Shown here: positions 6,461 to 58,699 of the stretch, piece after piece
Layout: each line of letters opens with the position of its first letter
Position numbering within the stretch: position 1 is the stretch's first letter
Source of the DNA: Marsupella aquatica
Lineage: Eukaryota; Plantae; Marchantiophyta
DNA: 64,000 bases
Direction of reading: 5' to 3'
Assembly (NCBI GenBank): GCA_973895155.1
Contig: OZ316894.1
Location: 15,058,699-15,122,698, forward strand
Position numbers and translations under genes: made by a program
Notes under the pieces: model-generated
Databases searched by the model: none
Told to the model about the DNA's origin: nothing
What the model saw: the letters and a program-made list of their open reading frames with translations, nothing else

Positions 6461-6474
6461 CGTTATCAACACGA
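6461..6474 (+). other. Primer-binding site (internal/half tRNA-iMet type, Bianca-like)
   Basis: cgttatcaacacga immediately after the 5' LTR. It resembles the Bianca PBS cgttatcagcacga. Confidence 0.75.
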
Positions 6475-12135: not shown

Positions 12136-12266
12136 TGTTATAACCCCTTAGGTTAGGTCTACTCAAAGGTTAGGACTAAGGCGGTTACACAACCAGCTAC
12201 CTTAGCAACCTACTATGTATATGGATGGAGATGAATAAAGTGTTTACATTATTGTGATGTTGAACA
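12136..12266 (+). repeat. 3' LTR of Bianca-like Copia
   Basis: Near-identical to 6330-6460 and preceded by the PPT. Confidence 0.96.
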
Positions 12267-17140: not shown

Positions 17141-18276
17141 AATGAATACATGATATTCATTCTCTATACTAGAGCTATCACATCACATAGTTGACAAACC
17201 CTCTTTTTCCTGTCAATATCTTTCCATCTCCCTTGTTCTATTTTAAGGTGGTGTGAGCTTAGTCTATACTGAGCAATAAGTTGTCTAAGTTGTAGTGAGA
17301 TAGTGCTAGATAAGTATTCTTGTTCTCCATATTTCTTCATGGGGTTCACATCTCTCATGTAGTATACTACATGCCGTGGGCTAGGTTCATGCCAAAGTTT
17401 GTGCAAAGCCTTTTGCTCAAGTTTTGCTCTTAGCTTGGTTGGGTGTGTTGGCTATTCATGTTCAGGAAAATCCCAAGCATGGGCTCACCTGCACACATCT
17501 GCATACCACCCTTTAGCTGAAGATGAGCGCAAGGCATGAAAAGGAAATCTGTTTTCCTCCAACTCTCTTACACGCATGATGTATTTGAGTGTGTGGAAGA
17601 GTGCCTCCACCTCCAAAGGAAACAAGCCTGCCTCTGCAAGTGTAAGTGCATATGGGGTTTGTGACTTGATCCCAAGCTCCATCTCAAGAAATAGCTTTTG
17701 CAGCCCCTCAATCTGTTGCCACCCAGATTTAGACACACCTGCTCCCCAAATTGGTGCTCCATAAAGAATGACTGGTTTCACCAAAGCTCCAAAGAGATGT
17801 TTCCTTAACCTCCAAGTGTGTAAATCAGCTCTTTTGCATTTGTTCATGAATGCATAAAAAGCTCTGTACCCATTAGCAGCCCTAGATTTACACATGAGGC
17901 CCAACTCAAGTTTTGAGAGAACTCCACCCCAAGGTATTTGTAGGTCCTCACAAATTCCACCAGATTCCCTTGGAAGTAGAGCTCTGGATTTTGTCGTGTG
18001 CCAATGCCCAAACACTTGGTCTTCTTGAGGTTGACTACTATCCCTGTTGCTTGACAAAACTCCTCCAAGGCATTGAGATGCCTTTGCAAAGCTTCTTGAG
18101 CATGAGCAAGTAGGACCACATCATCTGCAAATATAAGAAGTTGGAGGACAAACCTACCCAATTGAGTGCCAACTCCACCATGCTCCTCCAAAATGTTGTG
18201 TAGCTGATCAATGAAGATGCCAAAGAGAGTTGGTGAGAGAGGACAACCTTGGATCACCCCAAGAGTGCTCCAGATT
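17141..18276 (-). mobile_element. Internal fragment of LINE ORF2 (RT C-terminal half to Zn finger), inverted near-identical copy of ~42795-43922
   Basis: IQGCPLSPTLFGIFIDQL...LLIFADDVVLL...RLSSHHLKIEQGRW is almost identical to the LINE at 39594-44234, with small indels. Confidence 0.93.
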
Positions 18277-19668: not shown

Positions 19669-20244
19669 CCGCTGATCAATTTTGCTTCCCTCACTCCCTT
19701 AATATCATAGCGCCACAGGTCCGCAATCTCTTGTGAAGAACTCCACTCACCTTGGTGCACCGTTCCGACTAATTTCCACCACAATGCGCCCTTATCCTTT
19801 GGTTTCCTTTGATGAAAATGAGCTCAATCAAGAGTGTAGCTAATGTGCGAGAGCAAACCGACGAGGTCCAAGTGACTACAATGCGAGAAGCGGCAAATGA
19901 GCTGCCATACCACCAAATGGGCTCTTATGGGGGTCCCTGGGCAAGTTCGGCCATGAGAATTGTCAAAAACCATTAGCCGCCATTGCTTAATTGAGTGCAA
20001 CTCTCAATCCAAGCGTGAGGTGCCATAACAAATTTTTACTCTACGGCCGCCATAGTACAGCCGATGATCGTAATAGTGCTCCTTGCTATCATTACTCATT
20101 AAGTTGACTAACCTATTCCTAGTCTAATCATAATTGCCAAAACTTCTACTCATACCATCCTATCTATACGGATATGGTCCTAATGACCATACACGTCCTA
20201 ATCTGGTACTTGTGTCATGTTAAGTGACATGCTACCCATGTCAC

Positions 20245-20960
20245 AACAATCGTTAAGATGGAATCACTACCTTGGGACTCAGGTAACCCCACAATGAAGT
20301 CCATGGAGATGGACTCCCATGGAGTTGCGGCTGCTGGTAAGGGTTGTAGAAGTCCTCCTTTTGCCCTATAGACCGTTTGTTTCTTTTGGCACGAGTAACA
20401 ACTTTGCACATGGCAAAGAACCAATTGTTTCATGTCTGGCCAATACACATCTTGCAACATGTTGCGATATGTAGCAGCTTGTCCTCCATGCCCACCCCAG
20501 GGCGAGTCATGGTACTTTTGAAAAACCTCCAATCTTAGAGACTTTGGGATGTACACACGCCTCTACTTGTATTGCCATAACTGGATATTATGCGTTGTAT
20601 CCAACCCCAATGAAATGTGCCTTACCTTGCCTTGGCTACCCCCATTGCTTTGCTATTCCTTGGCTAACCTGTCATCCCCATACGCCTCGGCCACAACCTT
20701 TGGCCACTCAAATTTGAGCATCGTGATCCCATTGACACAATGATGGTCCTTACGTGATAACGCGCAAGTGCTGTGTTTGTCTTCCCAAGAACGTGATGGA
20801 CTTTGCAATCAAAATCCGCCAAGAACACCTGCCAGCCTTGGGGTTCAGCCTTGGCTTGGAACCGAAGTACCCGATTGGCGAGCTATCTGTGTGTATTACC
20901 ACCTTGGGACCGTTCTTAAGGTAAATTGTGACGCTGCCAGCAAGGTGGTTAATGAGTAAT
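20245..20960 (-). pseudogene. Ty3/Gypsy pol fragment (RNase H end, integrase H2C2 zinc finger, start of core)
   Basis: YHDSPWGGHGG...YWPDMKQLV...CYSCQ...GLLQPLP...PWESISMDFIVGLP; upstream VIHTDSSPIGYF...PRLNPK. Confidence 0.85.
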
Positions 20961-21554
20961 CCGGCCTGATCCGTGCTTAGCACGCGCGCTACGGACTTAG
21001 TAGCCTGTAGTTATTAGCATAACAACACTAAAATAGGTAGTAATCATGAATAGGACATCATTAATCAATAAGAAGCATTTACGCTCGGGCTGGCGGCGGA
21101 GCACCATCCATACCGCCGGGTTACAAGCTTGTTATGGATGTCTCCTTGGGTCCATATAACAAATCAAGGAGGCAGCTCTTTGACACGCTATCGCAAGGAC
21201 TTAAAGTTAGGGGCTCCTCGGGAAAACTACACGTTTCTGGCTGCAATTGGGACAGGCAACAAGCACTTTTCGGAGCAAACTCTCACTCCTTTATATTTTT
21301 TACTTTTCTCACAAAGGTTACAATAGGTGACCTCGAGTAAGCTTGCCCACAAGAGTCTGGTAGTTGGCCCTACGGCGGGCCGCTACCTCTAACTTGTCGA
21401 GTGAAACTCCTCGAGTGACTAACTACTCAAAATCTGACGGAAAAACTATCCTCCTTAGCTCACAAAACCAAAACTCGACTAGCTACTCCACTAGTCTAAA
21501 ACAACTCACACGGAACTCGGGCCTAGACCAACGAGGCTCCAAACTCAAGAAATC

Positions 21555-21660: not shown

Positions 21661-22367
21661 CAACACTTGCCAGAACTCCAAAACCGCCGCACAATAGTCG
21701 AGTTCCGTAGAATGGAGCGAAACTCACAGAACGCAACTCAACAGATCTCAATAGACAACCGCCAACCTCAATGAGCCGAGGCTCAAGTCTTAAGTAGCAT
21801 CGGAAACCCAACCATCCAGCCTGAGCCAGCTACCATCTGCAAGGCTCATCCAAACTCCAAGCCTGGTGACTCACCCAAACACCAAACCTGGTGACGATGA
21901 GTCACCCAATCACCAAACCTCAATCCATCCAACCAAGCAGCCCCTCCAAGTTAGCATGCACGCAACCCAACCGGGAGGCCTCGCCCATCATCCCCTATAA
22001 AAGCCATTCCTGAGCCGAAATCTTTCGGCACGACATCCTCCCCCAGTAAACCTGAGCAGCCTTCGATCTGCTCCAATCCATCAGATTTCCTCTAAGTCTG
22101 AGTCCAAACTCAAGCCATGCGCCTGGACCACTTCCTCCTCAAGAAACTCAAACCCAAGGCCTTCAGACTCGGCATTAGGCACTCCACTTTCCAGAAACTC
22201 GAAGTCCAACTCATCCGAATCAGAACCAGTCAAGCCACTTTCGAAACTCAAGTCCAACGGATGTGCCTGGACCAGTGCCTCATCTTCAAATTCACTCAAG
22301 TTGGAACTTGAGTCCATTCCCTTCTTGGTCCTCTTGAAGATCTTCACCCTTTTCCCTGCGTAAGGTA

Positions 22368-22530
22368 CACTAGTAGAAACCGGGGCAATTTAGACCATAC
22401 CTTATAGGACTATGCCCACTAAGTCCTTTTTCCATACTTAAAACAACTCGCACCCATTGCACCGGTTTTGTTGAAGACTAGAAAAGACTATGAGAGTTTT
22501 ATGGTTCACTAAAAGACTATGAGAAGTAAC
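22368..22530 (+). repeat. CACTA left TIR and subterminal repeats
   Basis: cactagtagaaaccgggg followed by ggactatg / aaaagactatgaga repeats. Confidence 0.88.
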
Positions 22531-25500
22531 CTTGCTACTTTGTGAAGGGTGAATAGTCTAGCACATCATGGGTAATGTTCACTCTATGTTGAGGAGGGGT
22601 AATTCTCCTTCATCTTTGAGCCGAAAGCACCGACGTCTATCGAGTGCCAAAGAACTGCTGGAGATCGAGCGAATTCACACTCTCAGATGTGGGTCGTGTC
22701 AAATTGTTTCCTCCATTGATGGCAGCCTTCTGTGAGATTGATTTATACTGTGTGGCTATCTGGGAGTTTTGTCGACTCATTTGACACCGATACTCCCGTG
22801 ATTTCCTCATACATAGTGCCACTGCCCCCCCGCATTGTGTTCAATCCCTATAGCTTATAGCTGCACCACTCTTGGTGGCCCTTGCTCATGCCTTGGTTTT
22901 TTTTCTTTTTCCCATTACAGTATACACCCCCTTCTTACTAATCAGGTGGATTAATTTAGTACTAGACAATGCTTTGACACTTTACACTTACACTATGCTG
23001 ACCTACTGCGCCTTCTAGTGCTTATTCCCTAGTTGTTACTTGTTGCATGGACCACTAGAAGAACGGCTTCGCAATCTTTGCCTGATCTGATGACCCTGGT
23101 TGAGTAACTCTTTGTTATTGCCTCCTTTGGGTGTTGAGGTTTTATGATGCCATTTGGCCTACTGGTTCCCCCATCCGTGGGGTTCACGCGGAATAAATGT
23201 AAAATTTCAAACAAAAAAATAAATCTATAAAGAGGGTGATAGCAAGGGGCATAACTCATTAAATGTCCTTATTTGTGACCAAAAAGGTTTTGGGTTAATG
23301 AAGTGGGGTTCATGGAGGTTGGACCATGGAGGGATGGTCAAGATATTCTTGGCCATTACTAAATCCATCTATAAAAGGTCAAGATGCACAAAGGTAGATT
23401 TGTACCGGTCCTTTTTCATACATTAGAGCTAGGTCACATTCTTGCACCGGGAATATTGCATTTTAGGACCGGATATAATGTTGGGCAACCTTAATCCTGA
23501 TTACGGCGTGCAATAAAATGTCACTACCGACCATGTATGTGCAAATATGACCATTCATTGCCTAAGTTGGCCATGCAGTAACACTTTGTAGCTTTGTCCC
23601 ACTTTGGGTGACACTCAACGGCTCACTCAAACGGTAAGGCTGAGTGGCTTCCCCTAATTCGGTTTCAGGCACTAAACTTCACTTTGGGAGTCTCTTTGGA
23701 GTTTTCGCCATTGTCATTGAACTTAGAACGTGAGGGGTGGAGTGTTCGGGGTTTTACGTAGGGTTTTCCTTTCAGTGTTGCCCACTTTTTGCGACCATTG
23801 CGGAGTGAACTTCCCGCGCGTTATGTGCTTGTTTATGCTCTCGAGGAGCAGTGTTCAGGCAGTTGCAGTGATCTAACCTTGCGCTTGCAGTCTACTCATA
23901 GACCTGCATTCCTGCTCGATCTCCTTTAGGGACATTTAGTTTTTGGCTGGTAGGGCGAAGAAGGTTGTGGCTGCTGCAACGTTCGTGAGGAGCTTGTCGG
24001 AGTTTGAGGAGTCGGAGGTTGGGGTTTCTTCAAGGTTTTGGGTGACAATCTCGGTCACAGTTGTGGTATAGACCCTTTTGCTGCACCCATAACGAGCATC
24101 GGGAGGCCGTGAGGCTCATTGGGAGGTCCTTCAGTTGTCAAGCTGCCGTTGAGCTGGTGAAGTTGCATGCGGGTTGCATCTGTTCTGCGGACACAGTCAA
24201 TGTGGGAATCCATATTTTCATAGTGCTTGTTCTTGCAAACTGGGAGCCGAGAGTTTGGAGTCGGGAGCTAAGAAGGGTATTGTTAGGCTTCAATTACTCT
24301 GTGGTTTTCTCCAGCTCCATGGTACAGTTTCAATGTTAATGCTTTGTCCTTGTGCTGGTCTAGGTAGCGCGAGCTTCTACCTATTGCGCCCTCTTGCTGT
24401 AAGCGTATTGAGCTGCCAACTGAGTGATTCATACCTGTAGCTGCTTACGCGTGATCAAGAGATTGAACAAATGCCTAGTGCTGTCCAGCAGGAGAAAACT
24501 CTTTTTGGTCACGATCGGGCGTTGGAATATAACTAAGTGCGGCAGAGCAACACGGGGAGCTGTAGAGTTGCAGACAAGACGCAACTATAGAGGAGGCATT
24601 GGGAAGGACACAACGGTGCGGTGAAGGTACAAGGACCGTGGACCCTAACTTGTTTGCTGCCTTGGGAGGATCCGGAGAGCCCGAGGCGACATGCTTCATT
24701 GAGCCTGAGCTAGCTGAATCCAATCCAGGAGTTGTTGCGCTAAGGTGAGACTTTGAGTTTAGGGTTGCTTCAGTGTCCGAGTAGGTTTTCTCTTTGCGTC
24801 GGCAGCTAGAAGGTAAGCTCGGGGGCTTTACAAAGGGTTAGTGTTGTGGACTTTCCCTCCTGGACGTTGTGTGTCTTCATTTGCAACTTGTTTGTGGACC
24901 TGTGATCCTGAGACTGTCAAAATTGTTGTGGCCGCACTGACAACTTGATGACGCGTTTTGTGGATGCACCGTTAGTAATCGCGAGTACAGCTCTCCAACA
25001 ATTGCACTTACCATTTTTGACCACCTTGCATGATGTCCATCCGTGGGCTGGACCCCAAGAAGTAGATTTCGGTAGATTTCGGTAGATTTTGTCTTTGCCC
25101 CCGGTCCTCATTTTGTGCAATGTCCGCCTGGCACTTGGTTCTTGATCCCTACATTATCGTCTGCCGCTCGGCTGCTTGCAGAAGGGATCAAACAGATTGG
25201 AGGTGCTTGGTCTTTTCATTTTGAGTGTCAGAGTTTAGGAGGACAGCTTGCACCATCGCCGACAAGAATGACCTGCTTGCAGAACAAGAGGGACGAGCGT
25301 GAGCTGCTTGCAGAATAGGAGATTGACCGCGAGCACGAGCTGCTTGAAAAATAGGAGACTGAGGGCAACCTGCTTCTTTGTTGCTACTCTGGTTGCGCTG
25401 CTACATTGGTTGTTGATCTTCACCCACCCACTTGCCTACTCAATTGACAGAGTACAGCTTTGTCTCTGCGTCTGTTATTGCTGTCTTTGTCCCTCCCCTT

Positions 25501-26760
25501 GAAATTGTGGGCCTTAAAAGGTCAGTAAGTTGGCTTATGTAGTTTTTATGTCCCTCCGCTATGTCAATGCGTGTTTCATTGCATCAGGGCATCAGTCGCT
25601 GTTTGCCTATAACCGGACTGTTCATTCTCTGTCCACTCATTTGATGTAATTCTTCCCATTGCCGCCCAATGCTATGGCGCCCATGCTACAATTTGTGGTT
25701 TTTGTCTAAGCACAAATCCTCTCTGTGCCTGGTCTCTGTGTCCCGTCATTGGGATTGATTGTGTAGACGTTTCCTCTTCTCCCAGTCCTTGTCATCCACC
25801 AGCCAAAGCACATTGGATTGTTTTCAAAGGAGGGCTGTGTAGTTTGGAGGGTTTGATCTATGCAGCGGATTTGAGCAGATTGGCGGTTGTTAGTTTCTTC
25901 TTGTAAAACCTGTCTGTCTTTTCTGCTTTTGGCCATGCTCCTTCACTTCTTGCTGCAAGCTCAATGTGCTTCAGCTATGGCAATATTCACTTACCCTATC
26001 CCAACGGCACTACCGTGAGCTGTAGGACAGCCAACAGAAGCAGATTGTATCGATTGCATGTAAGTCAGGGTATTTTATGTATTGCGGAACAACTGTCCAA
26101 GTTTGCTGCAATGGCCGGTCTTGCGCAGCTGAATGAGCCAATTTCATTTTCCCTGTGCACTTCTATTTCTCAAAGAATTCCCTGGTCATGCTCATTTCCC
26201 CCAGAGTTAGAAAACAAAGAAGAAGAGCTGACTAATTGTAATTCCAATCCATATCCTGATCGGTCAAGGATTGTTCACTACATTGGCCTTGTCATTGGCC
26301 GAGGTCACCAAATTTTGCTTGGTTTCATTCCTGTGGAGCACTGCTGTGATGGATTTGTCGTAGCATTCTGCAAACTCTCACGGTTTGCTTATGGCCATTA
26401 TTTGCAATTTGCTGCTACTAATATGTCTTCTTCTGAGCAGCATACACCATAAGTAAGCAATAGTGGAGGTTTAACTGCACATCAACACATCTAGTGAACT
26501 ACCTCTCTGCTGCTCACTGGAGGGTGAGACTTTCACTCTTTCTGGATATTGTAGTTTGTAAGCAAGTTGATTAGGAGTGTTTCATGCTATGTTTACACTG
26601 TGACCCCTAGCTGGAACCAATGGAATGACACAGTGAGTGGGAACTGATAATTTAAGGTTGGTTGCTGTTGGTGAGGCAAGTACAGCTCCTGCTCACCTTG
26701 CTGATCGAAGGTGCTTATCAGAGGACGTGAACACACGACATCTCCACAAAAGCAACACTT

Positions 26761-27210
26761 ATGGTGAGGACCCGCAACGCTGAACATGTGCGGCTTGCAC
26801 GCAAGGCAGAGATGTTGCGCCTTGAGTATGTCAGACTTGGGATCCTTCCAGCCCAGTCTGCATGGTACTTTGAGTACCCAGTTGTTGCCAGGAACAACTA
26901 CAGCCGGCCTGTACCTGCTTCTCCACCCTTCCCAACATCCTTGGTATTTCTGTCTCTCATACATGACCCGCCACAAATTAGGGCCCAAGGGTGTGTGCAC
27001 AGTTGCCAATATGATTGTCCTGCCTGTAGGGCTTCTGGCCTAGAGTTGGATGACCGTTCTCTTGGATGTCGGTTTTTTCATAGAGCACAATGTATCATCT
27101 GGAACCACTCGCCATCCTGCAGTGTGCCTGGCGATGTCACTTGTCCTGCCCTCCCAGACCCCACCACCGGTCACTTTGGTGTCTACACATGTTTGGATCA
27201 CACGCTCTAG
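26761..27210 (+). CDS. Small Cys/His-rich ORF of unknown function inside the CACTA, 149 aa
   Basis: ATG-started ORF co-oriented with the other cargo, containing CVHSCQYDCPAC...CRFFHRAQC...C...C...CLDH. No family recognised. Confidence 0.4.
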   Translation: MVRTRNAEHVRLARKAEMLRLEYVRLGILPAQSAWYFEYPVVARNNYSRPVPASPPFPTSLVFLSLIHDPPQIRAQGCVHSCQYDCPACRASGLELDDRSLGCRFFHRAQCIIWNHSPSCSVPGDVTCPALPDPTTGHFGVYTCLDHTL

Positions 27211-27879
27211 AGGACCACTTGTCACACCGCATGCACAAACCAGAGACCATTGACCTATAACTTAACACTTTGACTTGAACAGAGAGGATATTTACTTAAG
27301 ATTTTGAATTATGACCAATTTTGGGTCCAGGGTTTAGGGTCAACAGTACATAACTTATCCTATTATGGCTACACTAAGTACAATATCCTAATTTAAGAGG
27401 CTAGCAAGCTCACTTAAAAGTCTCCTTTCAAAGACTGGAATTAATGGGCCATGTGATAACCTGGAAAAAGTGATTTCTGCCTAACTTATTTGTCTCATTC
27501 ACTATCATAGCCTATTTAGGATGTATAAATTACAACCCTGATCACAGTGCTTGATACCAATCCTGTTCAAAAAATGCCTGTTTTACATGTCACGACTGTT
27601 ATATGTGATTCAAATGCATTAAATCTTGTTGCAGATCTCCTTTGGTGAATCATAGCCACAAAATTGAGGTGTAGGTGGAGCTATTGTACGAGGGGATCAG
27701 TTTTTAGTGTGGGCTCAACAAACCAAAAAGTATGTCTACTCTGCACATGTGTGTGAACATTTCATTGCAGTAGCAATTGCCACTCTAGTCTATATGCTAC
27801 ACTGTACTTTTTGTACACTGCACTAAATTGTATTGTCCGTGCACTCTGCTAAATTGTACTATCTGTCTCATGCGTAGGC

Positions 27880-28548
27880 ATGGCACGCCCTAAAATCCGA
27901 GCCAAGAAGCGGGGGACAGAGGTGAGCAACACAGGTGTAGTTGGGCCAGATGGTAGTAACTTCTCCGCAAGTCAGATTTTCCAGAAGGCAGCTCATTGTT
28001 GTGCCATTTGTGACGATGGTGGTGGCTTAGCCATATGTGAGGGCCCTTGCATGAGGCATTTCCACCTCAACCCGGAGTCTGACCTTGCTGCAGAAAACAA
28101 CTGTCCAGGGGTGGGCCTCCCGTCAGCACACCAGGGAGGCTGGATGTGCACTGATTGTTTGGAGAAGCAGGCTAAGTGTGCACAGTGTGGGAAGTTGGGG
28201 TCTTATGAGGGCTCTGTTGATGCTCCACCACTTGTTAGGAAATGCCCTGACAGATATTGTGTGAGGTTCTTTTGTTTTTCATGTTTGCCCGATCTTGCCA
28301 CAGCTTGCCCACTTCATAAGTGCAAGGCATGTGGTCAGCACGATGAAGATTTCTGGGTGGACATAGTCCACTGTGTTAGGTGTCCCTTTCATTGTTTGAA
28401 GGAGCGTCAAGCAGAAGGCTATGCTTGTGACAGACACATCTATGATCACTCTGCACATGGTGTTGATCGATGGATCTTCTATTGTCATCGCCATGCCATA
28501 GATCCTACTTTGCACACTCCCATGAGAGATCACATTTCTTGGCTTTGA
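27880..28548 (+). CDS. Stand-alone EDM2-like composite PHD-finger protein with N-terminal NLS-like segment, 222 aa (CACTA cargo)
   Basis: CAICDDGGGLAICEGPCMRHFH...CTDC...CAQCGKLGS...CPLHKCKAC...CVRCP...IFYCHRHAIDPTLHTPMRDHISW parallels the Arabidopsis EDM2 PHD region as recalled (CAICDNGG..CCEG.CLRSFH...CPLHKC..C...CRRCP...IYC..HEID..L.TP.RDH). N-terminus is RPKIRAKKR. Confidence 0.85.
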   Translation: MARPKIRAKKRGTEVSNTGVVGPDGSNFSASQIFQKAAHCCAICDDGGGLAICEGPCMRHFHLNPESDLAAENNCPGVGLPSAHQGGWMCTDCLEKQAKCAQCGKLGSYEGSVDAPPLVRKCPDRYCVRFFCFSCLPDLATACPLHKCKACGQHDEDFWVDIVHCVRCPFHCLKERQAEGYACDRHIYDHSAHGVDRWIFYCHRHAIDPTLHTPMRDHISWL

Positions 28549-29146
28549 ACCTGAATAATATACATGCATAGTGCACCTGATGTGGATACCTTGGAGATTG
28601 TAGACATTCCAATTTTGAGAAGAAGGACCTCTGTAGGAGAGGATGCTTAGGCAACAAGTACCCTAAGTTCATTACTTGTTCCTGGGTACATGCCTTCAAA
28701 AACTGCCCTTAAGCCTTCTAGGAACTTTTTTAACTCTGCAATCATTTTGATCACGACTTACATGACACTGCTTAAATTAAATCAGGACTTCTCATTATGA
28801 GCATATAAGTTACAAGGCTATTTAATTTGCGAGAATTCCCTTAAAGTGTACCAACATTTTGTATTCTCATTGAATGTCTGCCCATTTACAACATCTGTAT
28901 GTGGCATCACAAAACAATTGCACTTGTCACCTTCAATATTGTGAAGGCACATATTCAAACTATGAGGTGCATGCTTGCAGGTGTCTAGTATGTTTGTCCC
29001 AATATTTCTCCCGTTTGGAATCGGAGCAGAGACTCACCAAACGACTGGACTGGACCAAGTTATAAACGCAGCATTTTAAGGGCCCTCTGATTATCAGGTG
29101 AACGCATTATCTTCCGGTCTGCAGTGATTAGGTGGCCCGTGTGTAC

Positions 29147-29995
29147 ATGGCCTCTAGAAAACGTACAAAGGTTGACCACCCGCCTCTGTTGGCTGGAATC
29201 AAAGCCATTTTGATTCCTGGCCACTATGGGTTCACCCAAGTGAGTTGGCCAATCGTACAAAAACGATTCTCAGAGTTCCATGGGACTGAAGTCAAGGACA
29301 TCACTCCACAGACTACACATGTTGTTGCGGGGACATGGCTGGATGTGATGAACAAGTGGTCATGGTCCTTCATTGATTCTGCCATTACCAACCAAGGTCT
29401 AAAAGTAGTTGAAGTCTCTTGGCTGACCGATTCTGTTAAACATAGGTGTGTACAGAGTACTGAGCAATATGAGTTGTGGGAGAGTGAGGAGGCCACTGCA
29501 GAGGCTTTGGCTGAAAAGGAAGCCTATGAAGCAGCGGCAGAGAAACCCAACTTTGCTTCTGTCCAATATGGACCTGTTGTCAACATAGGACACCATCCTA
29601 TGCGTGCAGATGCTATATTGAATGAGCATGGCAAGGAGAGAAATACCATTATGAAGGGGTTCAATGTGGTATTTGCAGAAGAAGGAATTGGGGAGACTAA
29701 GTGCAGACTGTACAAGTCTATAGTTGTTGAGCTAGGTGGGACAGTGGAGGAGAGTCTAACAGAAACCTCCACTCATGTTGTAGGTCTGTCATACATAAAA
29801 ATATGCAGAAAATTCTTTAAGACAACAGTGCGTGATTTTGTCATGAACAACAATCTTTGGGTGCTTTCCCCTGATTGGCTTCTGGAATTAGCAGCTAGAG
29901 GGAAGCGACAGAATGCTTGGGACTTTGATATTTTTGAGGCCTGGCCCTCCAAGATTCAGCGAAGATGTATGCTTAGCAAAGGTGGGAGAGAGTGA
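29147..29995 (+). CDS. Tandem BRCT-domain protein (CACTA cargo)
   Basis: Two BRCT units: LLAGIKAILI...FHGTEVKDITPQTTHVVA...VVEVSWLTDSV...YEL and IMKGFNVVFA...ELGGTVEESLTETSTHVVG...VLSPDWLLE. N-terminal RKRTK. Confidence 0.82.
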   Translation: MASRKRTKVDHPPLLAGIKAILIPGHYGFTQVSWPIVQKRFSEFHGTEVKDITPQTTHVVAGTWLDVMNKWSWSFIDSAITNQGLKVVEVSWLTDSVKHRCVQSTEQYELWESEEATAEALAEKEAYEAAAEKPNFASVQYGPVVNIGHHPMRADAILNEHGKERNTIMKGFNVVFAEEGIGETKCRLYKSIVVELGGTVEESLTETSTHVVGLSYIKICRKFFKTTVRDFVMNNNLWVLSPDWLLELAARGKRQNAWDFDIFEAWPSKIQRRCMLSKGGRE

Positions 29996-30171
29996 GGAGT
30001 AGGAGTCCCTCATATTTTTGTATAAAACACAATTTTGTAATAAATGTGATCCTTGAACTAACTCATCTTGTCATGGTTGGTCGCAGTTGAAGTGATTGTT
30101 GTTTCCTGCTGCGTGGGGTGTGACTGTGAATCTACTTGCTGGGCTCTGTTTGGCTGAAGACTTTGGTGGGT

Positions 30172-30705
30172 ATGCTGCCTCTTCCAGACCGTCAGGCCCT
30201 ATGTAGGGTCCTCCTACGGGTTGCATCGTGCATGGCTACTGCTTGGGCTTACTTGTGTGGATTGGTAACCAGACAGAGTGTAGCTCCATCCGAGATAATG
30301 CCTGCAGACCTTGGATGTGTTGTGAATGCTGTGGTGAATGAGGATGCACAGTCGGAAGAGGACATTTACTTTTCAGCAGATGAGTTAGACAAGCACGATG
30401 CTGTAGGTGGTTCCTTGTTGCCTGATTTGGCAGATGATATAGTTCTTACACATGTCTGGCCGAGGGTTCTTGTGGTGTCTGGCGCACAAGATATCTGCAA
30501 ATATAGACTAATTAGTACCCAGTGGAGGGACTTGGTAGCAACATGTGCACCATGGAGGGCACTGCTGCCATTGCTTGTAGGCACGGATCGAAGACCACCA
30601 TGGCATGAGCAGGGTTTAGACCTTGATGACTTAATGTACATGCCTGAGTACCTCAGGGCTGAGTGGCATCGACAACAGGATTGGTATCCGTATTTGATGT
30701 GGTAG
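30172..30705 (+). CDS. F-box-like small protein lacking an obvious substrate-binding domain (CACTA cargo)
   Basis: SLLPDLADDIVLTHVWPRV...CKYRLISTQWRDLV matches the F-box pattern LPxLPDDIxxxIxxRL...RxVSxxWRxLV. Confidence 0.62.
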   Translation: MLPLPDRQALCRVLLRVASCMATAWAYLCGLVTRQSVAPSEIMPADLGCVVNAVVNEDAQSEEDIYFSADELDKHDAVGGSLLPDLADDIVLTHVWPRVLVVSGAQDICKYRLISTQWRDLVATCAPWRALLPLLVGTDRRPPWHEQGLDLDDLMYMPEYLRAEWHRQQDWYPYLMW

Positions 30706-31031
30706 TAAGATGAGGACATCTCACACCGGTCTCGCACCTGGCACCTGTGTCTATGACTATACATGATTGGACTCTGATATGGTCATGGATGTACGTGCAG
30801 AGGCAGTACATGTGAGGACAGCGGAGGAGTTGACACCCTCAAACATTTAGGAATTTTGTCTCATTCACTTGAGAATAGGTACATGACTCAGGCACCTATA
30901 TTTTTTGTTTTTTTGTTTTTTTGGAACGTTACGTATTTTGGCAAGTACAGTCGGGGGTGAAATCCTTAACAGGAAGTGTATTTTTCACTTGCATAATAAA
31001 ATGACAGGGTGCTGAGTGCGTGTGTATAGTG

Positions 31032-34000
31032 ATGGCTCCAAGGTTGCCTCTTCACAACCCATTTAGGATTAGGCATCATGATTCTAAATTGTGGATGCGT
31101 GAACAAGCCCGGGCCGCCCAAGGTAGGAGTAGGAGGATGAGATGCCCATGCACACAGTGCCAAGGATTCAAGTCGTTGAGTTTGAACACTGTGCACCTTC
31201 ACCTGCTGCGGCATGAAAGGCACCCTCGGTGGAGGGTTTGGAATGTACCAGCAGAAGAAGACTCCTCTGATGAAGAGTGGAGAGCTGACTTTGTGGATTC
31301 TAATACAGCTAGGCGTAGAGACTACGTAGAGCAGGACATAGACTGTGCAGAGGATGGTCCTGGGGTCCAACATGAGAACGTGGATGACCAAGATGGAGAT
31401 GCAGAGGCAATCACTGAGGACGGTGGGATGGATGTCCCAAGAATGGTTCAAGAGATTTTTGAAGACCTTGATGCTTTTTACGACACAGTGGAATCAGAAG
31501 AGGACAATGAACCGCAGCCACACATTGGCGACGGCCAAGCTCAACCTGACTTTGACATTGGGGAAGGTGCAGCAGAGAGGGAGTGGGTGTTTGGGGGCCC
31601 AAAACACATCAAAGAAGCTTGCATTCCTATCTACGAGGGGTCGAACTACTCCAAGCTGGGTTTTGTCGTGTTGTTGTTGAACATCTGTGGCAATCACAAT
31701 GTTCCCAATATATTTGTGACAGAGTTGTTGACCTTCCTGCGCCGAAATGTGTTACCAGATGGTAATTCAATTCCAAAAAATATGTACGAGGCTAGGAAAT
31801 TGATGTCTAACCTTGGGCTGAACTATGTGTCTATTGACGCATGCCCTGATGGGTGTGTTCTCTTTCGCAAAGAGCATGCAGATAAATTGACATGCCCTCA
31901 TTGTGGTAAGCACAGGTACAAGAATGTAGGGAAATGTACACACCCTGCCAAGGTTCTTCGTCATTTTCCTCTCATTCCTAGACTACAACGTCTGTTTAGA
32001 TGCCCTGCCATTTCCAAGCTGATGACATGGACTCCTGATAACAAGAGCAGTGATGGCCTGCAGCGTCACATTGGAGATTCCAACCATTGGAAATTTGTTG
32101 ATGAGAGGTGGCCACAGTTTGCTGCAGAGAAGCGGAACTTTCGATTTGGTCTATCACTGGATGGAGTAAACCCATTTGGAGACAAAAACAACCGTTATTC
32201 ATGTTGGCCGGTTACGCTGCTAAATTACAACCTTCCCCCATGGATGACTACAAAGAGGTTTTTTGTCATGATGGTGCTGTTAATCCCTGGACCAGCTTCT
32301 GTGACCGAGCAATTCATAGATATCATGTTGGCTCCAGCAGTGGAAGAGTGGAAGACTTTGTGGATAGAAGGGGTGTTAACCCATGATGTTCTGAAGGGGC
32401 TTCTTCGACCTAGCCCCTTTAGACTGCATGCAATTTGTTTGCTGGATATAGCAGATTACCCAGGCCATGGCATCATATCTGGACGAGTGACAAAGGGCTA
32501 TGTGGGGTGCACACCATGTGGGAAAAATGTGACAAGTGAGTGGTCGCATGCCCTGCACAGTATGAAATTTCAGGGGCATAGAAGGTATCTGCCTGTTGAT
32601 CATCCTTACAGGCACACACGGTCTCAAATTGCACACTTCAACAACAAAACAGAGCTTCGTGGCCCACCACAGAGGGTCACCAGAGAGCAAGTCCTGAGGT
32701 GGGCAGCCAGGAAGGCTGATTGGGACAAGAGAAGTGCCACTGATCGAGAACCTGAGGATCCAGTGGTGAAACACGGTGTGAAAAGACAGACCTTGATGGA
32801 CTTGGAGTTGGAGTACTGGAGGGTAATGTACTTAGCCTCCAGCCCCTGTATGATTGCAATTTTAGATTGGAGCAATGGTGGATTGATGTTGGTTACAATC
32901 CTCCTATGTGGTTAATTAGTGTTTCTGTTGTTGAATTCTTTGCTTTGTGGAGTGCAGGAATTCGAGCCCAGCAAACACAATGTGGACGTCATGCACATTG
33001 AGAAAAATATTTGTGAGAGCTTGCTGAAGTTCTTGTCGGGTGAGAAAGATACAGGAGCAGTTCGAGCTGATATGCAACACAAGGGGATTCGCCCTCACCT
33101 TTGGTTGAAGCCCCATGCAAGCAATCCCAATGTACTTCTCAAGTTCCAAGCTCCCTATGTGTGCACACAGGATGAATGGAAGACATTCTTGTATAGATTG
33201 AGCTGTCTGAAAGTGCCCTCTGGCTATGTTGGTGCCTTCAAGAAGCATATTACAAAGAATAAACTTGGCAGTATGAAAACACATGACTACCATGTGTTGA
33301 TGCAACACATTCTGCCCCTATGCCTCAGAGGTCTCATGCAGAAACCAGTCCGTAATGTCATTCTTCGACTGTGCAATGTATTTTGCCGTATATGTGTGAA
33401 AGTGTGGGATCCCCAAGGATTGGAGCAGTTGAAGCAGGATGCTGCTTATGTCCTCTGTGACTTGGAGATATACTTCCCCCCTGCTTTCTTTGATGTTATG
33501 ACTCATCTCCTAATCCATGTGGTAGAAGAGCTAGGGCAGTATGGGCCAGTCAGTACCAGATGGATGTACCCTATGGAGCGATACATGAAGTTGTTGAAAG
33601 GTCATGTGAGAACATACTACAGGCCAGAGGCTTCCATGGCATTGGGGTACATTACGGATGAGACGTTGGGATTCCTAACAGAGTACATGGCTGGGTCTGG
33701 TGAAGCTATGACAAGAGTTTGGAAATCTGGTGAAGATGATGGAGTGAGTGGCGAGGTTGTTGAAGGTGTGGGACGTGCTGTTCAACTGCCTGTTGCGATT
33801 CGAGACAAGGCTCATTCATATGTGCTGGCAAACACAGAGCCTATGCAACCATGGTGGAGGTGAGTGATTGAATTGACTTGCCTTTGTTGTGATGCTTCTT
33901 GTCTGTTCCAAGGGTGATCTTAGGTTGTCATGTGTTGTTTAGACCTAACTATGCCTGTACCTCATAATGCAGGGAATATGATATGCAAAAAGCTGCACAC

Positions 34001-34732
34001 TCTGGGCAGCAGGATCCCTTCCCACAGTTCGAGCAGTGGATTCGGGTGACAATTCGAGAGCATAGTAGACATCACCCAGATATGGAGAATGATTTGTATC
34101 TTCTATCTGTGCCACCACGATTGTCTATTCTGACCTACAAACGGATGAGAGCTTATGGAAATCATTATCGAGTGAGGGATGAGCAGGGTGACCATTGTGT
34201 ATCATATGATTGTGGTTTGATTTCTGTGTTTGAGCAGAGAACCTCTGAAGAACAGAGGGGGTGGATGAAGATGGGTTACGTGGGGGAGTTGACCGACATT
34301 TGGGTGTTGAATTATGGTAACACAAGTGTCCCAGTGATATTGATGAAGGGATCATGGGTGAAATCAGAGTGGCAGAGACCAAGGGCCACCATGAAGCGTG
34401 ATCATGATGGGTTCTTGTTGGCCAATTTTAGGTCCAGAGTACCAGAATGGTCTGAGCCTTTTGTTTTCCCTAGCCAAGTTGAACAGGCTTTCTTTGCAGA
34501 TGTGGAGGAGTCACATGACTGGAGGGTGGTATGCCATAGCCAAGCACGGAACAGGCGGATGGATGGAAGTAAAGTAGAGTTCAGTTTGGATGACCATGCT
34601 GCATTCGAGCATCCTAGTCATGAGACTGTACTTCCAACTCGGGCAGGGACTGACTACATCCCCTTAACATTGAGAGAGACATATGATGAACCTGGGCAAA
34701 TGGAATATGATGAGGTTGATGATTTGCAATAG
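31032..34732 (+). CDS. CACTA transposase TnpD (transposase-associated, Transposase_21, DUF4218, DUF4216); exons 31032-32822, 32958-33859, 33973-34732
   Basis: Motifs RCPCTQC, IDACPDGCVLF...CPHCGKHRY, GLSLDGVNPF...YSCWPV..LNYNLPPW, DVMHIEKN, MKTHDYH, WMYPMERYM, EPFVFPSQVEQAFF. GT-AG introns at 32823-32957 and 33860-33972 join the three ORFs in frame. Confidence 0.93.
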
Positions 34733-34909
34733 GCAACAGCTGGCGATTGGCAAGTATGAGGTTGAGGATGACTACCTGCACAGAGTCACATAACGGGAAT
34801 TGCTGCCTGGAATGATGTTTAGGATAGTTGGATATGCATGAAATTGATTGATACTTTGAATTTAGTGTGCTGATTCTCCCTGTTTGGTTGTGGGTGTTGT
34901 GCAGAAGCT

Positions 34910-37900
34910 ATGGGGGAAGAGGGTGATGACATGGAGACAGACATGGGGCTTGGAGAGTGGGGTGAAGAGGAAAGATTGGATATGGATGGAGACCCAGATG
35001 CAGGGGGCTCACAGAAAAATGCACCTGTGCAAGATGCACAGGGCCCTCATCAAGTCCCAGGTAGGTGGGCAGCTAGAGAGAAATCACATAATCCATACCC
35101 TAGAAGGAGCCAGAGTTATTGGCAAGGGACGCCTGATAATTATGATGATGACTATGATGGAGCAGAAGATGGATGGGATGAATATGAACACCCAGAGCGT
35201 GGTAGAGACGGGTACAGAGGGCAATGGAAAGGTGAGGAGGATGATTGGACAAGTAAGTGCCTTGTGCTAGTGATTTTGTGATGATAGTAGAGATTTAGCT
35301 CAATATGCACTTATCTGATGTGTAGCTAGGGCAAAGAGTTTATCTTACAGGTCCATGAGTGTGGCATGTACCTGTTGGTATGCAGACTCTGATTGGGACA
35401 ATCACGAAAACAACAAAGGCCATCCACGTTCAGATAGGAGGCAATCATTCACAGGCGGGAGAAACGCCCCTAATTCATCAAGACAAAGCAATAGGACAGG
35501 TGGTCCAGAACCATCTATGCGCCAAGGGAGAGGTAACTTGGTCATTGCAGAATTGCTCTGAAGTCCACTGTATATTTGGCAGCGGGATTTATGATTCATA
35601 CTTACCTAATGTAAGTGACTGTAAATGGATCCTGTAAATGTGCAGGGACTCCAGGGAGGTTTGGACAATGCAATCCAGGCCGTGGGGGGAGATCAGGCCG
35701 TGGAGGGACCCCAGGCCGTGGGGGGACACCAGGCCGTGGAGGGACACCTAGTAGCGCTTCAGGGAGTACCAAGGCAGGAGACAGTAACAAATTTGGTAAA
35801 GTAGAAGTGAATTCCGAAGGTTGGATAACTCCCACATGTGATGGTAAGAACCGTTGGCATTCTGACCTAAGAGGAGAAGTATTGCGTTGGTTAGATTTGA
35901 GCATTACAGAGTTTAGGAGTCAGAACAAAGCTGATTGGGCTGCTATCTGCAAGGACATTCTTGAATGGTGGGAGTATGTTGGTAATGATGGTAAGGGCCC
36001 AGTTGAAGATTGCATATCAGATTATGCAATGAGGATTTTGAAACAAGAGAGGCATAGGTTGAAAAGGATGTGGATAGACAATGGTTCTAACAGGAGAATG
36101 CCACCACCCCCATCATTGGAACTGGATCAATGGACACGGTTAATCAAAGGGTTCATGTCGGAGGCTGGACAGAGCAAGAGTGAACTGATGTCAAATGCTC
36201 GAGGCAAAGTGAAACACCTTTCACAGGCTGGGAGAGGAAGTTATGCTCCAGTGAAAGAACAATTGGTAAGGCAGTGACATGCCTGATAGTAAGCCTCAAA
36301 CTTATCATCTTGCTACCATTATTACATTTTCATTGACAATCAACACTTGGTTTCATTCATATGTATGTTGATGTGGACTGCAGAAGAAATTGACAGGTGA
36401 AGAACCATCAGCACAAGAAGTGAGAGAGGAGTTCATGAAACAAAGGAGTGAGGTGACAAGTGTAACTTCCAAACAGGTGATTATGTTGTAATTCTGTATG
36501 TTCTGTGACTATTTGGCCTTGAGCATCAGAAAGAAATGTAGTAGGAAGTAAGCAACCAGTTCTTGGGGACAGTTATCTGAGATATGTAAGCTATGTTATG
36601 ACAGGGAACTGTTACAACTCTCACAAAGATGTGTGAACGGTTGAAGTCATTAGAGTGTGGACTCCCTCGAGTGGAAAGTAAATTGGCTGATCGTTTGGAT
36701 ATTGTGGAGGCATATGTAGCGAACCTTCTTGCATCAGTGGAATCTAATTTCAAGCTTGTGATTGAAAAATTGGGTGGTTCCCAACCAAACAATGAGGGCA
36801 ACATTGTACAAAGTGTGCCCTTGTTAACAAAAAAGGGAATTGGCAAATCTAACACAGGTATGGAAATGACACCGGCCCATTGTTCATTGTGTCCTATGTT
36901 CAAATGTTAGAAGTAAGTTTTCATGAATTGAGTGAATGGTTTGAATGCAGGAAGAGTGGAGGCAGAGAAGGACCCTGTAATCAGTAAGCAGAAGGGCAAG
37001 AAGGTTGCTGAGACAGGTAACCTGCTATGATCCAATACATTACATTTGAAAAGTGCATGGAGTTTTGTGAAGCTTAAGCCGGTTGGAGGTAATCTTTTCT
37101 GTAAGAACTGGTTGGATGAACTGGGATCTGAAGTGACATCATGATTGATGTATCAGGTGATTCAAAGAGCAATAATGAAGAAGATGTGCCCAGTGCCTCA
37201 GTGACCATAGCCAAGGAGGTATCAGGTAAGCTGATGCTTTAAATTCCTCTATATGAATGTTGAGCAACAATTCAGTGGTTAATAGATTCAACCTGAATAT
37301 TGTGGTGTGTTTATTGATCAACAGAAGCAGACATGGAGCATATGGCAATGGCAAAGAAGGGGAAGAAGGCTGTTCATAATGGTAAGGAGATAGTGACAAC
37401 TTTGTGGTTGGTGACATGTACATTTAGCACATGTGATGAGTGATTGACTTATGTTGGACATGACACTGAATTGTAGTTGATGCAGAGTTGACAGACTCTC
37501 AACCAAGTGGGAGTAGGGTGAAGCGACGTCGAAACTTGGGAGCAACATTGGATGCAAGTAAGATTGTAGATGCTTCAATTGAAGCAAGTACAATGTTGGC
37601 AGATACTGAGATGATGTCGCAGGGAAATCCTGCTACACAATCAGAAGTGTCAAATATGGATGCAGATTCTTTGAAGAAGAGTGTAGCCAATTCTCGATCA
37701 CCAGCACAAAACACTCGTGCCAAAGTCATGACTCGCAACCAAGGTATGAATAATGTCATGTATAAGCCACCCAGGAAAGCCAAGAAAAACAGCCAGGGTA
37801 AGGTGGAGGTGATAGCCACAGCAGAGCCAGTCCATAATCTTCTATCATGGGAGGATGACTCGCAGGTATGTGTGGGTACAGGCATTTTGCGACCGGATCA

Positions 37901-38081
37901 TGCAAAATTCCATGGCAAAGTGGTCCCGGATGACCATGTAGTAGTGTTGTTGACTACAGTGATTGTATCTGATTATAATTTGCCATTTCCGAATAGAGAC
38001 GATGATCCACCTCAGGAAATAATTGCAGATGCAGTAGGATCTCTTGTGCTCTGGCCATCAGAGTGTGTTAGTCTGCAGTGA
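34910..38081 (+). CDS. CACTA TnpA-like DNA-binding protein, multi-exon (exon boundaries approximate)
   Basis: PPSLELDQWTRLIKGFMSEAGQSKSELMSNARGKVKHLSQAGRGSY (Transposase_24-like). Last exon FHGKVVPDDHVVVLL...LPFP...IADAVGSLVLWP (Tnp1/En-Spm C-terminal-like). Several GT-AG introns. Confidence 0.8.
35675..35750 (+). repeat. 18-bp coding tandem repeat (PGRGGT)
   Basis: ccaggccgtgg(g/a)gggac, about 4 copies. Confidence 0.8.
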
Positions 38082-38574
38082 CTGAATGCAAGTGTAGATA
38101 GCATCATGTGAATTGTGTCACATTTTGACATTGCCTTGGAAAGATCCAAGAAATATCTGTACCAATTTTTCCATTTGGTAAAGAGGATGAAGGAGACGTT
38201 GTGTGTGACATTGATATTTCTGAATTCTGTATGTATGAAACAAGTGATTGATGTCAAACTATGGCTCTATGGTGATTGTCTATGATACTTGAATCTATTT
38301 TATCATTTCAGTATTAGTGTGTATGGTATAGAGGAATACTTTGTGACCTTCTTTGTAGTCTATGAAGTTTGAATCTGTGAATTCATATTAGTGTACATGG
38401 TATAGAAGATGGCTTTCTGAAACTATGTATTCTAATGTTAACATGATGAATGGTGAACTTATAGAGTGAGTTCATTCCAAGTACACAATAAAACATGAAT
38501 GCAATATGTTATTTGTGCACAAGAGTGGGTTCATTCCAAGTAGTATAGTGGGGTCTTCATCACTCATATCCAGT

Positions 38575-38907
38575 TGACATAAAAGACTTATACATACCCC
38601 ACAAAGTATATTTAAAGACTACCCTCCATAACCTTTTTAGTCGTTCCCAACGACTCATCATCGCAGCCCATAAAAGACTAAAAACGACTCACCAAAGCTA
38701 CCCACACAAAGACTAAAATAGACTGAAAATCCAGTCTATTAAACGACTTATAAACCAGTTCTATAAAGGACTCAGTTGATTATAGTAACAAAACATACGA
38801 CTCGCAGTCCTATAAAGGACTAGAGTCCTTCCCAGTCGTTTCCAAGTCCTATACGGTACTGAATAGTCGTTTAATGGGGTCTAAATACCCCCCGGTTTCT
38901 ACTAGTG
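38575..38907 (-). repeat. CACTA right subterminal repeats and TIR
   Basis: Many aaagact/aaaggact/acgact motifs in both orientations, ending in ccccggtttctactagtg. Confidence 0.88.
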
Positions 38908-39608
38908 TCAAGACGCCGGTACAAAGGCAAGCATTGTAATTCGAGGAAGTGAGTCTCCACAACTGAATATGAAGTTGTGTGGTATGGTTTTTGTTCTCAT
39001 GATGAAATTTGAATGTCTTGGGTGTGTAGCTTCATTTTGTTATTTGGGTTAGTGGTTCATAGTCTAGTCTTTAGAATGTTAGGGAATAAAAAGCTATGTT
39101 GTGGGTGGTCGGTGACCATATCTCTTTCAATATGTCACCAAATCTGGATCTGTAAAGAGCATTGGAAAGATCTGGTCACGTCGAGTAAAATCAATATAAA
39201 ACTCTATGAAAACAAAGGTGATTAAGAAAGATTCAACCTGATTAGTGTGATGGGTTAACTTGTGGCCAAAATTAACGGGTTCTGCTACGGTTTTGGGTTA
39301 ACTTAAGCTTGGCCACGGCTTAGTTTTGGGCCACGACTTAGTTTGGGCCACGACTTAGTTTTGGGCCATGGCTTAGCTTAGGTGAGCTTGGCCATGGCTT
39401 AGCTTAGGTCAGGACTACTTTAGTTTAGGCTTAACCCAAGTTTGGGTTAGACTGAACTCGGGTTAGCCTAAAATGGGGCCGGGGTTAGCATAGGTCATCT
39501 CGGGTTTGGGCTTAGCTTAGCCTAGGTTAGCGGGTAGCGGATTAGCGGGTAGCGGTTTAACCCAAGGCCATGGGTTAGCTCTACTCAGGTTAGCTATGTA
39601 ACTGCAAC

Positions 39609-40056
39609 CGGCTGCGGTTTGAGCTCAGATTTTGCCAGAGCATTGGAAACAGCAAGAATGTATCACTGGCAAAGTTAGAGCTGCAACCGACATCGTTTGG
39701 TATGCACTTTAGCATGCGCGATCTGCTATGTCTCCAATTTCGCGATTCTGAGCTCGGGGCGAAATTTCACTTCGAGTTAGAAGGGCAATCGGCTGCGGTT
39801 TGAGCTCAGATTTTGCCAGAGCATTGGAAACAGCAAGAATGTATCACTGGCAAAGTTAGAGCTGCAACCAACATCGTTTGGTATGCACTTTAGCATGCAC
39901 GATCTGCTACGTGTCCAGTTTCAAGATTCTGAGCTTGGGGCAAAATTTCACTTCGAGTTGGAAGGGCAATCGGCTGCGGTTTGAGCTCAGATTTGGGCAG
40001 AGTGTTGCAAACAGCGAGAGTGTATCACTGGCAAAGGTAGAGCTGCAACTGACATC
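39609..40056 (+). repeat. 181-bp tandem monomers (2.5 copies) in the LINE 5' UTR
   Basis: cggctgcggtttgagctcagatt begins at 39609, 39790 and 39971. Confidence 0.92.
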
Positions 40057-40118
40057 CTCTACTGCTCCCAATTTCTATTTGTCGTCTAAGAGTACATTCT
40101 AACAACAGTTTCAGCTTT

Positions 40119-40892
40119 GTGATGGCAACGGAGGAGATTGCCCATCTCAAGGCTTTGCTTGAGAAAATCTTAGTTGTGGCTGAAAACTCCGCAATTGAGA
40201 TTACCACACTCAGCAAGGAGGTGACAGAGCTAAAGAATGAGAATGTCAAGCAAAAGAGGTTGATTAGTGATCTTCGATCTCAAACTCAGGAGAATGGTAA
40301 GCAACTCTCATTGCTTGCATCGTGTTTTGGAGACATGGAGAAGAGTATGTGCCCAGAGAAATCAGTGATACATGAGGCTGTAGGGGAAATTGAGGAGAAG
40401 CTCAAAACCTTTGCACAGGCTGCAAAACAATCACATATGGAATTTGTCCAAGCCAAGGAGGAGGAGAGGAGAGCACTAGAGGAAGAACACAAGAACCAGC
40501 ATGCAAGAGTCAGCAACTGCAAAATATCAGGCCTTGTTGAGGAGGAGAAGGAAGACACCAAGAAGGTAGCAATTTCATTCTTCCAATCTCAGATGAAAGT
40601 GCATGACCCTATCATTTTGCAAGCATATAGGATTGGGCAAAAGAAGGGGGACCTTCCACGTCCAATCTTGGTGAAGTTTGCAGCTGAATCCGAGAAAGCT
40701 AGAGTGATGGCTAACAGGAGCATGCTTAAAGGGCTAAGGATTTGGTTGGATGATGATCTGACTCCCACACAAGTCCAAGCAAGGAAAATTGAGCTTGAGA
40801 AGGTGAGGGTAGCCAAAGACCAAGGATTGGTAGCCTACTTGCGCAATGGACAAGCTGTTGTTACCAATAAGAAGAGAGTTGTTTCTAAATGA
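40119..40892 (+). CDS. LINE ORF1 (coiled coil plus RRM/CTD-like)
   Basis: Coiled-coil N-terminus; NCKISGLVEE, AYRIGQKK..LPRPILVKF, IWLDDDLTP motifs. Confidence 0.85.
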   Translation: MMATEEIAHLKALLEKILVVAENSAIEITTLSKEVTELKNENVKQKRLISDLRSQTQENGKQLSLLASCFGDMEKSMCPEKSVIHEAVGEIEEKLKTFAQAAKQSHMEFVQAKEEERRALEEEHKNQHARVSNCKISGLVEEEKEDTKKVAISFFQSQMKVHDPIILQAYRIGQKKGDLPRPILVKFAAESEKARVMANRSMLKGLRIWLDDDLTPTQVQARKIELEKVRVAKDQGLVAYLRNGQAVVTNKKRVVSK

Positions 40893-58672: not shown

Positions 58673-58699
58673 TCTAAGTAAAAATTTAGATTCAACATT

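Follow-up and report, generated by a model that had tools for sequence, protein, structure and literature searches.

The window, that is, the whole 64-kb stretch of DNA analysed here, contains a CACTA (En/Spm) transposon which carries an intact gene for a protein of 282 aa formed by two BRCT repeats. This protein is a member of a so far undescribed family, formed by stand-alone twin-BRCT proteins, whose origin is very probably the BRCT domain of DNA polymerase lambda (Pol lambda). The explanation that we consider best, with a probability of about 0.4, is that the product of this cargo gene serves, at the breaks made by the element itself, as an adaptor or decoy with no catalytic activity.

The CACTA element and its twin-BRCT gene

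The features of the element and of the twin-BRCT ORF are the following:

22368–38907 (+): CACTA (En/Spm) element of 16,540 bp, potentially autonomous
22368–22385 (+): left terminal inverted repeat, starting with CACTA and followed by subterminal GACT-type repeats
26761–27210 (+): Cys/His-rich ORF, cargo candidate, with no Pfam or NCBIfam match
27880–28548 (+): intronless ORF with a PHD-finger cluster (PF23011, E 3.5e-4, below cut-off; AIRE PHD, E 0.013)
29120–29124 (+): TGCAG splice-acceptor-like site, 22 nt 5' of the twin-BRCT ATG
29147–29995 (+): twin-BRCT ORF, from ATG to TGA, 282 aa, intronless and without catalytic domain
29177–29482 (+): BRCT repeat 1, aa 11–112
29483–29638 (+): linker of 52 aa, its first half acidic
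29639–29938 (+): BRCT repeat 2, aa 165–264, the more Pol lambda-like repeat
29684–29713 (+): helix alpha-1 segment of repeat 2, G180–Y189, with a gap-free alignment to G52–F61 of human Pol lambda
30130–30705 (+): F-box-like ORF (weak), cargo candidate (PF00646, E 0.08–0.095)
31032–34732 (+): TnpD transposase, with exons 31032–32822, 32958–33859 and 33973–34732
34910–38081 (+): TnpA-like multi-exon region (PF03004, E 0.014 on 35615–36274, below cut-off)
38890–38907 (−): right terminal inverted repeat, with subterminal repeats just before it

The subterminal motif reached a density of 15/kb at the left end and 29/kb at the right end, against 0.8/kb in the interior. The three TnpD exons, joined through two GT-AG introns, gave an open frame of 1150 aa with D/D/E motifs and with Pfam matches to PF02992 (Transposase_21, 201 bits), PF13960, PF13952 and PF13963. 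As these transposase domains are of plant type, they point to a plant as the likely host. The Cys-rich, PHD-cluster, twin-BRCT and F-box-like ORFs are all located upstream of TnpD and on the same strand. Since the twin-BRCT ORF lies within the CACTA inverted repeats and upstream of the transposase, it can be considered as cargo, in agreement with the sequence-only reading of this DNA, which had assigned it to a cut-and-paste element. A 3-bp target-site duplication was not found at the ends of the element (GTA at the left, TCA at the right). The left flank (22340–22367) is a decayed gypsy-like retroelement with integrase- and RNase H-like frames near 20200–21000 on the minus strand, and the right flank (38908–39300) looks unlike it, with different repeats. 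The missing duplication and the dissimilar flanks suggest that this copy of the element may be rearranged or joined in the assembly.

Acceptor-like AG sites are present at 27877, 29124, 31007 and 34905, just 5' of the ATGs of the PHD, BRCT, TnpD and TnpA-like ORFs. Such positions would be compatible with a single 5' leader that is spliced alternatively, and the TGCAG site points weakly to a leader intron before the twin-BRCT ATG, because the same loose acceptor pattern precedes 120 of the 445 ATGs of the element. The PHD-cluster ORF appears similar to the EDM2 PHD module of plants and might encode a reader or a decoy that counters silencing. EDM2 has been described as an H3K9me2-binding regulator of transposons (PMC7529245).

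The presence of two BRCT repeats, already recognized from the letters of the DNA, was confirmed by Pfam, as PF00533 matched the 282-aa ORF with 50.6 bits (cut-off 21.3) in two stretches. When the repeats were scanned separately, repeat 1 gave 20.9 bits, just below the cut-off (E 4e-4), and repeat 2 gave 36.8 bits; aligned with each other, the two share 23% identity over 71 aa (E 2e-6). The second-repeat peptide quoted in the sequence-only reading was located at residues 168–213. The conserved alpha-3 tryptophan of BRCTs is invariant in the twin-BRCT family (W92 and W244), and the N-terminus of the protein is basic, with a possible NLS. The linker had also been described as acidic; in the window copy it has 10 D/E and 4 K/R over 52 aa and is acidic in its first half, but this acidity is not kept across the family, as shown by the linker of P0033 (3 D/E, 9 K/R). 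NCBIfam and Rfam scans gave no match. The lyase, fingers, palm and thumb domains of Pol X enzymes were absent from the ORF, which only matched BRCT families, whereas a real Pol lambda showed all of them; the cargo protein is not a Pol X. Two AlphaFold models built on shallow alignments were of low confidence, with pLDDT values of 34 and 44, so that the lack of matches in the fold search carries no weight.

Outside the element, the window contains a LINE (39597–44105, +) with a frameshifted ORF2 and, at the 5' end, three tandem repeats of 181 bp, as well as a 5'-truncated inverted copy of it (17141–18276, −), 98% identical and 25 kb upstream. An intronless and intact 14-3-3 ORF (15427–16221, +) has a CpG observed/expected ratio of 0.89, unlike the surrounding methylation-depleted repeats. 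Remnants of Copia-type retroelements in both orientations were found at 481–12266, with a 131-bp repeat pair (6330–6460 and 12136–12266). Finally, an ORF for a NIF-type phosphatase (PF03031, E 5e-14) and another that weakly matched N6/N4 methyltransferases (E 1e-4), both at 49969–53306 (−), adjoin tandem arrays (55886–56311 and 57822–58693) and a 942-aa ORF (59623–62451). The features between 49969 and 62451 are possibly another large mobile element.

The twin-BRCT family and its relationship with Pol lambda

A word-index search for homologs identified P0001 only (61% identity) among proteins of near length and the fragment P0003 among shorter ones, and no homolog among 7,995 longer candidates. 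From the ESM Atlas came generic BRCT clusters, none above 0.90, which were taken as leads only. The HMMER scan of 1.84 billion representative proteins with a two-sequence repeat-2 profile (E ≤ 0.001) yielded 14 matches, corresponding to eight family members or fragments (P0001, P0019–P0024 and P0030), two single BRCTs of Pol lambda type, three multi-BRCT proteins and one spurious match; P0033 was added from a cluster look-up. P0025 was dropped as spurious for being a repetitive protein, P0006 and P0013 were set aside as they have no BRCT, and P0023, P0032 and P0034 are duplicates of P0033 or P0020. The family has six full-length members, all stand-alone proteins with two BRCTs and of 264–321 aa, with 24–61% identity and linkers of 40–52 aa, and the members looked up have no informative name. 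A lack of conservation among copies had been named beforehand as an argument against the end-joining hypothesis; at protein level, these six sequences keep both repeats. The repeats of the 282-aa ORF are 67 and 64% identical to those of P0001 and the linker 43%, this being the least conserved part of the protein. The family also includes a single-BRCT member, P0030, in which the Ku columns are occupied by R and L and the aromatic patch is of repeat-1 type. Its position in the tree, between Pol lambda and repeat 1, suggests that it may resemble the form prior to duplication.

The resemblance of repeat 2 to the Pol lambda BRCT, originally proposed in the sequence-only reading, was supported by database searches. 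The single-domain matches outside the family in the 1.84 billion proteins were P0027, of algal origin and 38% identical to A. thaliana Pol lambda (E 4e-20), and P0029, which matched human Pol lambda (E 2e-8); both are of Pol lambda type, were chosen by the same profile and are fragments without Pol X domain. The rank of the three multi-BRCT proteins in that scan is due to the sum of their domain scores, the best single one being at most 15.8 bits. A short-motif scan led to eight loci of plant Pol lambda genes, one of them a cDNA encoding A. thaliana DPOLL. The repeat-2 profile gave 24–29 bits with five plant Pol lambda BRCTs; against plant Pol lambda it scored 28.0 bits at 120 aa and 23.4 bits at full length, with a maximum of 11.9 bits in 1000 shuffles. 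The best PDB domain for this profile was that of TdT (15.4 bits), itself a Pol X member. P0027 and P0035, two algal gene models adjacent to each other, share a BRCT of Pol lambda type and a low-complexity tail, have no polymerase domain, and are either split gene models or stand-alone host Pol lambda BRCTs.

Deeper profiles extended the resemblance to repeat 1. With the family profiles, the five Pol lambda BRCTs scored above the 17 control domains when both repeats were taken together (41–65 versus ≤35 bits), and the same was observed for repeat 1 (27–44 versus ≤20 bits) and for repeat 2 (37–56 versus ≤30 bits). All controls came from the three multi-BRCT proteins of the library scan, with no plant BRCA1, REV1, LIG4 or XRCC1 among them, and the Pol lambda set did not include P0012, P0015, P0017, P0018 and P0035, which are partial sequences or near-duplicates. 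For a nine-sequence profile, human Pol lambda (2JW5) was the best single PDB domain, with 29.5 bits over 93 columns; Pol lambda scored 29.8 bits against 26.8 for REV1 and 24.1, summed, for LIG4, and Rtt107 was on top by summed score alone. In a tree of 38 rows the controls were placed to one side of a branch (79/74) and repeat 1 grouped with Pol lambda (91/92). The AU test rejected a tree joining the family to the two best controls (p 0.005), but neither the monophyly of the family (p 0.08) nor the grouping of repeat 2 with Pol lambda (p 0.13). One capture followed by duplication and two separate captures would both be compatible with these tests.

The identity of the repeats to Pol lambda is 16–24%, and shallow profiles gave nearly the same score to BRCA1 (23.9 bits) and plant Pol lambda (23.2 bits); an early profile of repeat 1 alone placed a weak BRCA1 match first, with Pol lambda at 6.4 bits at most. 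A search of the PDB with single sequences that was blank for human Pol lambda and mu was discounted, because a real A. thaliana Pol lambda BRCT missed both too. All these comparisons indicate that Pol lambda is very probably the nearest outside relative and the origin of the twin-BRCT ORF, although the margins are small and the control set is not a full plant BRCT panel, and both repeats are likely to derive from it. In host Pol lambda genes the BRCT is interrupted by two introns, and the cargo ORF has none. Provided that the donor lineage had those introns, their absence suggests that the capture took place through an RNA copy.

Conserved surfaces and possible function

Helix alpha-1 of human Pol lambda has been reported to dock between Ku70 and Ku80 via R57 and L60 (PMC12056208). 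In the alignment of repeat 2, K185, L188 and Y189 occupy the positions of R57, L60 and F61, the change from R to K being conservative, while repeat 1 has S at the R57 column and no basic Ku-contact residue. The Ku-contact pair is present in all five Pol lambda BRCTs versus three of 15 family repeats (Fisher p 0.004), namely none of seven first repeats, two of seven second repeats and one single repeat, and in two of the 17 controls (p 0.65); the second repeat of P0019 was not counted because its R57 column is missing. That the pair is no more frequent in the family than in the controls is the weak point of any reading based on docking. Some family members have A at R57 or R at L60, changes described to cripple Ku binding in human cells (PMC12056208).

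The adaptor or decoy model can be tentatively proposed as follows. A Pol lambda BRCT would have been captured through an RNA copy and then duplicated. With its helix alpha-1, repeat 2 would dock on either the bridge of Ku70/80 or XRCC4-LIG4, displacing Pol lambda and shifting the repair of the donor site, whose ends would be filled in less often and more often trimmed or copied from the sister chromatid. This copying would restore the element and so raise its copy number. Repeat 1, after losing the Ku contact and gaining an aromatic patch, might bind a second partner, for example the transposase complex of the element.

Several published data bear on this model. In human cells, catalytically dead Pol lambda with an intact BRCT was reported to bring gap filling below the level of the knock-out, an effect reversed by R57E, and BRCT mutants left direct blunt joining unaffected (PMC12056208). 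By analogy, it can be expected that a BRCT on its own would interfere with gap filling and not with end joining as a whole. Pol lambda has been described as the only Pol X of higher plants (PMC10787897); in plants, according to the reports of Roy 2013 and Huefner 2011 cited in PMC4444747, its BRCT binds LIG4 and XRCC4, and the enzyme functions at the sites from which transposons are excised. In canonical tandem BRCTs, alpha-2 of the first repeat is described to pack on alpha-1 and alpha-3 of the second (PMC10386641), and such a packing could bury the docking helix of repeat 2. A bolder version of the model, which we regard as unlikely, would be that of an old decoy family that occupies the Pol X site of Ku, shuts out gap filling and favours copying the element back, the variability of alpha-1 reflecting an arms race with host Ku. 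Together with the PHD reader and the F-box, it would make up a kit of stolen host modules that steer repair and silencing.

The conserved residues of the family may point elsewhere. W64, S72 and W73 of repeat 1 are present in seven of seven first repeats and W71 in six, and in repeat 2, Y216 and E264 are found in eight of eight second repeats and C220 in seven. The aromatic patch that is conserved after beta-3 lies outside the BRCT core and is mostly unlike Pol lambda, while the Ku pair varies. It is conceivable, with somewhat less confidence, that the protein is a re-purposed scaffold of Pol lambda origin, whose repeats would pack as one unit and whose alpha-2 aromatic surface would serve to bind a protein with no part in end joining. 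Candidates are TnpD or TnpA, the products of the PHD and F-box cargo ORFs nearby, or a host factor involved in silencing. The PHD cluster and the F-box-like ORF next to it would suit a module for chromatin or protein turnover. However, the window copy and P0001 both have K and L/M at the Ku columns despite 35% divergence, a basic residue occupies the R57 column in five of seven second repeats, and the scaffold has no known partner.

The distribution of the ORF was also considered. Contigs covering it were present in four of four sequencing runs (52, 119, 39 and 45 contigs), from three organisms and four studies, one of which possibly shares its source with the window, and 17, 21, 10 and 9 of these contigs, respectively, were less than 90% identical. 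So many diverged versions indicate that the ORF travels with several element subfamilies. On the other hand, the contigs from which the relatives at 24–34% identity derive (ENA, JGI and Logan) are 0.8–13 kb long, these relatives are known as proteins alone, and searches of metagenome contigs and viral contigs gave no related loci. These relatives would agree with a lineage-specific host family of twin-BRCT genes picked up by the CACTA element in Pack-type fashion, with a function for the host or incidental to transposition. Such an origin is improbable, as the ORF is intronless, its diverged versions appear in every run, and its CpG observed/expected ratio (0.26) is as depleted as that of the transposase (0.33) and far from that of the 14-3-3 ORF (0.89).

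It is very unlikely that the ORF derives from another BRCT family (BRCA1/BARD1, REV1, TopBP1/Rtt107 or LIG4) and works as a phosphopeptide reader or an XRCC4-binding clamp. The shallow profiles did weakly match repeat 1 of BRCA1, LIG4 and Rtt107, REV1 was within 3 bits of Pol lambda, and the arrangement of two BRCTs around a long helical linker is reminiscent of LIG4. Nevertheless, Pol lambda was ahead of these families in the library search, with the deeper profiles and also in the tree. Furthermore, in tandem BRCTs that bind phosphopeptides, beta-1 is described to be followed by S/T-G, and alpha-2 to begin with T/S-X-K (PMC10386641); the window protein has Y-G and E-G at the former position, and the T/S-X-K motif was found in none of the 16 family repeats at the start of alpha-2, after beta-3. 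Phosphopeptide binding is unlikely because both motifs are absent.

Among the variant sites listed between close copies (40 of 106 places), nine of 36 were synonymous, against 22% expected (p 0.39), and seven of 23 in the BRCT cores (p 0.23), so there is no sign of purifying selection at that level. Even so, a neutral passenger, captured and amplified with the element and now drifting, is very unlikely, since six full-length proteins at 24–61% identity keep both repeats, a linker of 40–52 aa and invariant tryptophans, the repeats are more conserved than the linker, and the three indels listed in related copies all keep the frame.

Comparison with known systems

CACTA/En-Spm elements with captured host domains, in which cargo accompanies TnpD and TnpA, are of a known kind. 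The element described here shares with them the CACTA ends, the subterminal repeats, a spliced TnpD, a TnpA-like region and extra ORFs in the same orientation, and differs from those with known cargo in carrying a conserved family made from a DNA-repair docking domain and, for the window copy, in the absence of a target-site duplication. In the literature searched, which excluded subscription journals, Repbase entries and supplements, no BRCT cargo was found in CACTA or other DNA transposons. A conserved family of twin Pol lambda-type BRCTs as CACTA cargo appears to be new.

The closest known domain is the N-terminal BRCT of Pol lambda (DPOLL_ARATH, NP_172522.2; human 2JW5/9G9L), the nearest by profile and tree, with which repeat 2 shares a gap-free beta1-alpha1 spacing, K/L/Y at the positions of R57/L60/F61 and the lack of a phosphate pocket. 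Unlike Pol lambda, the cargo has two BRCTs instead of one, lacks the Ser/Pro region, the lyase, the polymerase domain and the introns, is 20–24% identical to it, and is carried by a transposon; the Ku pair is lost in repeat 1 and in most relatives, and a new conserved aromatic patch is present. With the tandems of BRCA1, LIG4 and TopBP1/Rtt107 it has in common two BRCTs per chain and weak profile matches. In contrast to them, it has no phosphoserine pocket motifs, it belongs to stand-alone proteins of 264–321 aa, and their single-domain scores are lower than those of Pol lambda; the ligase domain of DNA ligase IV is also missing.

The gain of copies by a cut-and-paste element depends on the repair of the empty donor site. 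The Sleeping Beauty transposase has been reported to contact Ku70 (PMC7827188), and PiggyMac of Paramecium to contact Ku70/Ku80c (PMC4148214). The twin-BRCT protein is predicted to resemble both as part of a cut-and-paste system in contact with Ku at the breaks it produces. In those systems, however, it is the transposase itself that binds Ku and joining is promoted, whereas here a separate protein with a stolen docking fold would probably compete with a host polymerase. If this is true, a transposon protein made from the docking domain of a host repair polymerase would give the element a direct handle on repair choice. Even with another partner, this is an undescribed and long-conserved family in which a repair docking domain was probably captured, doubled and re-surfaced by a mobile element.
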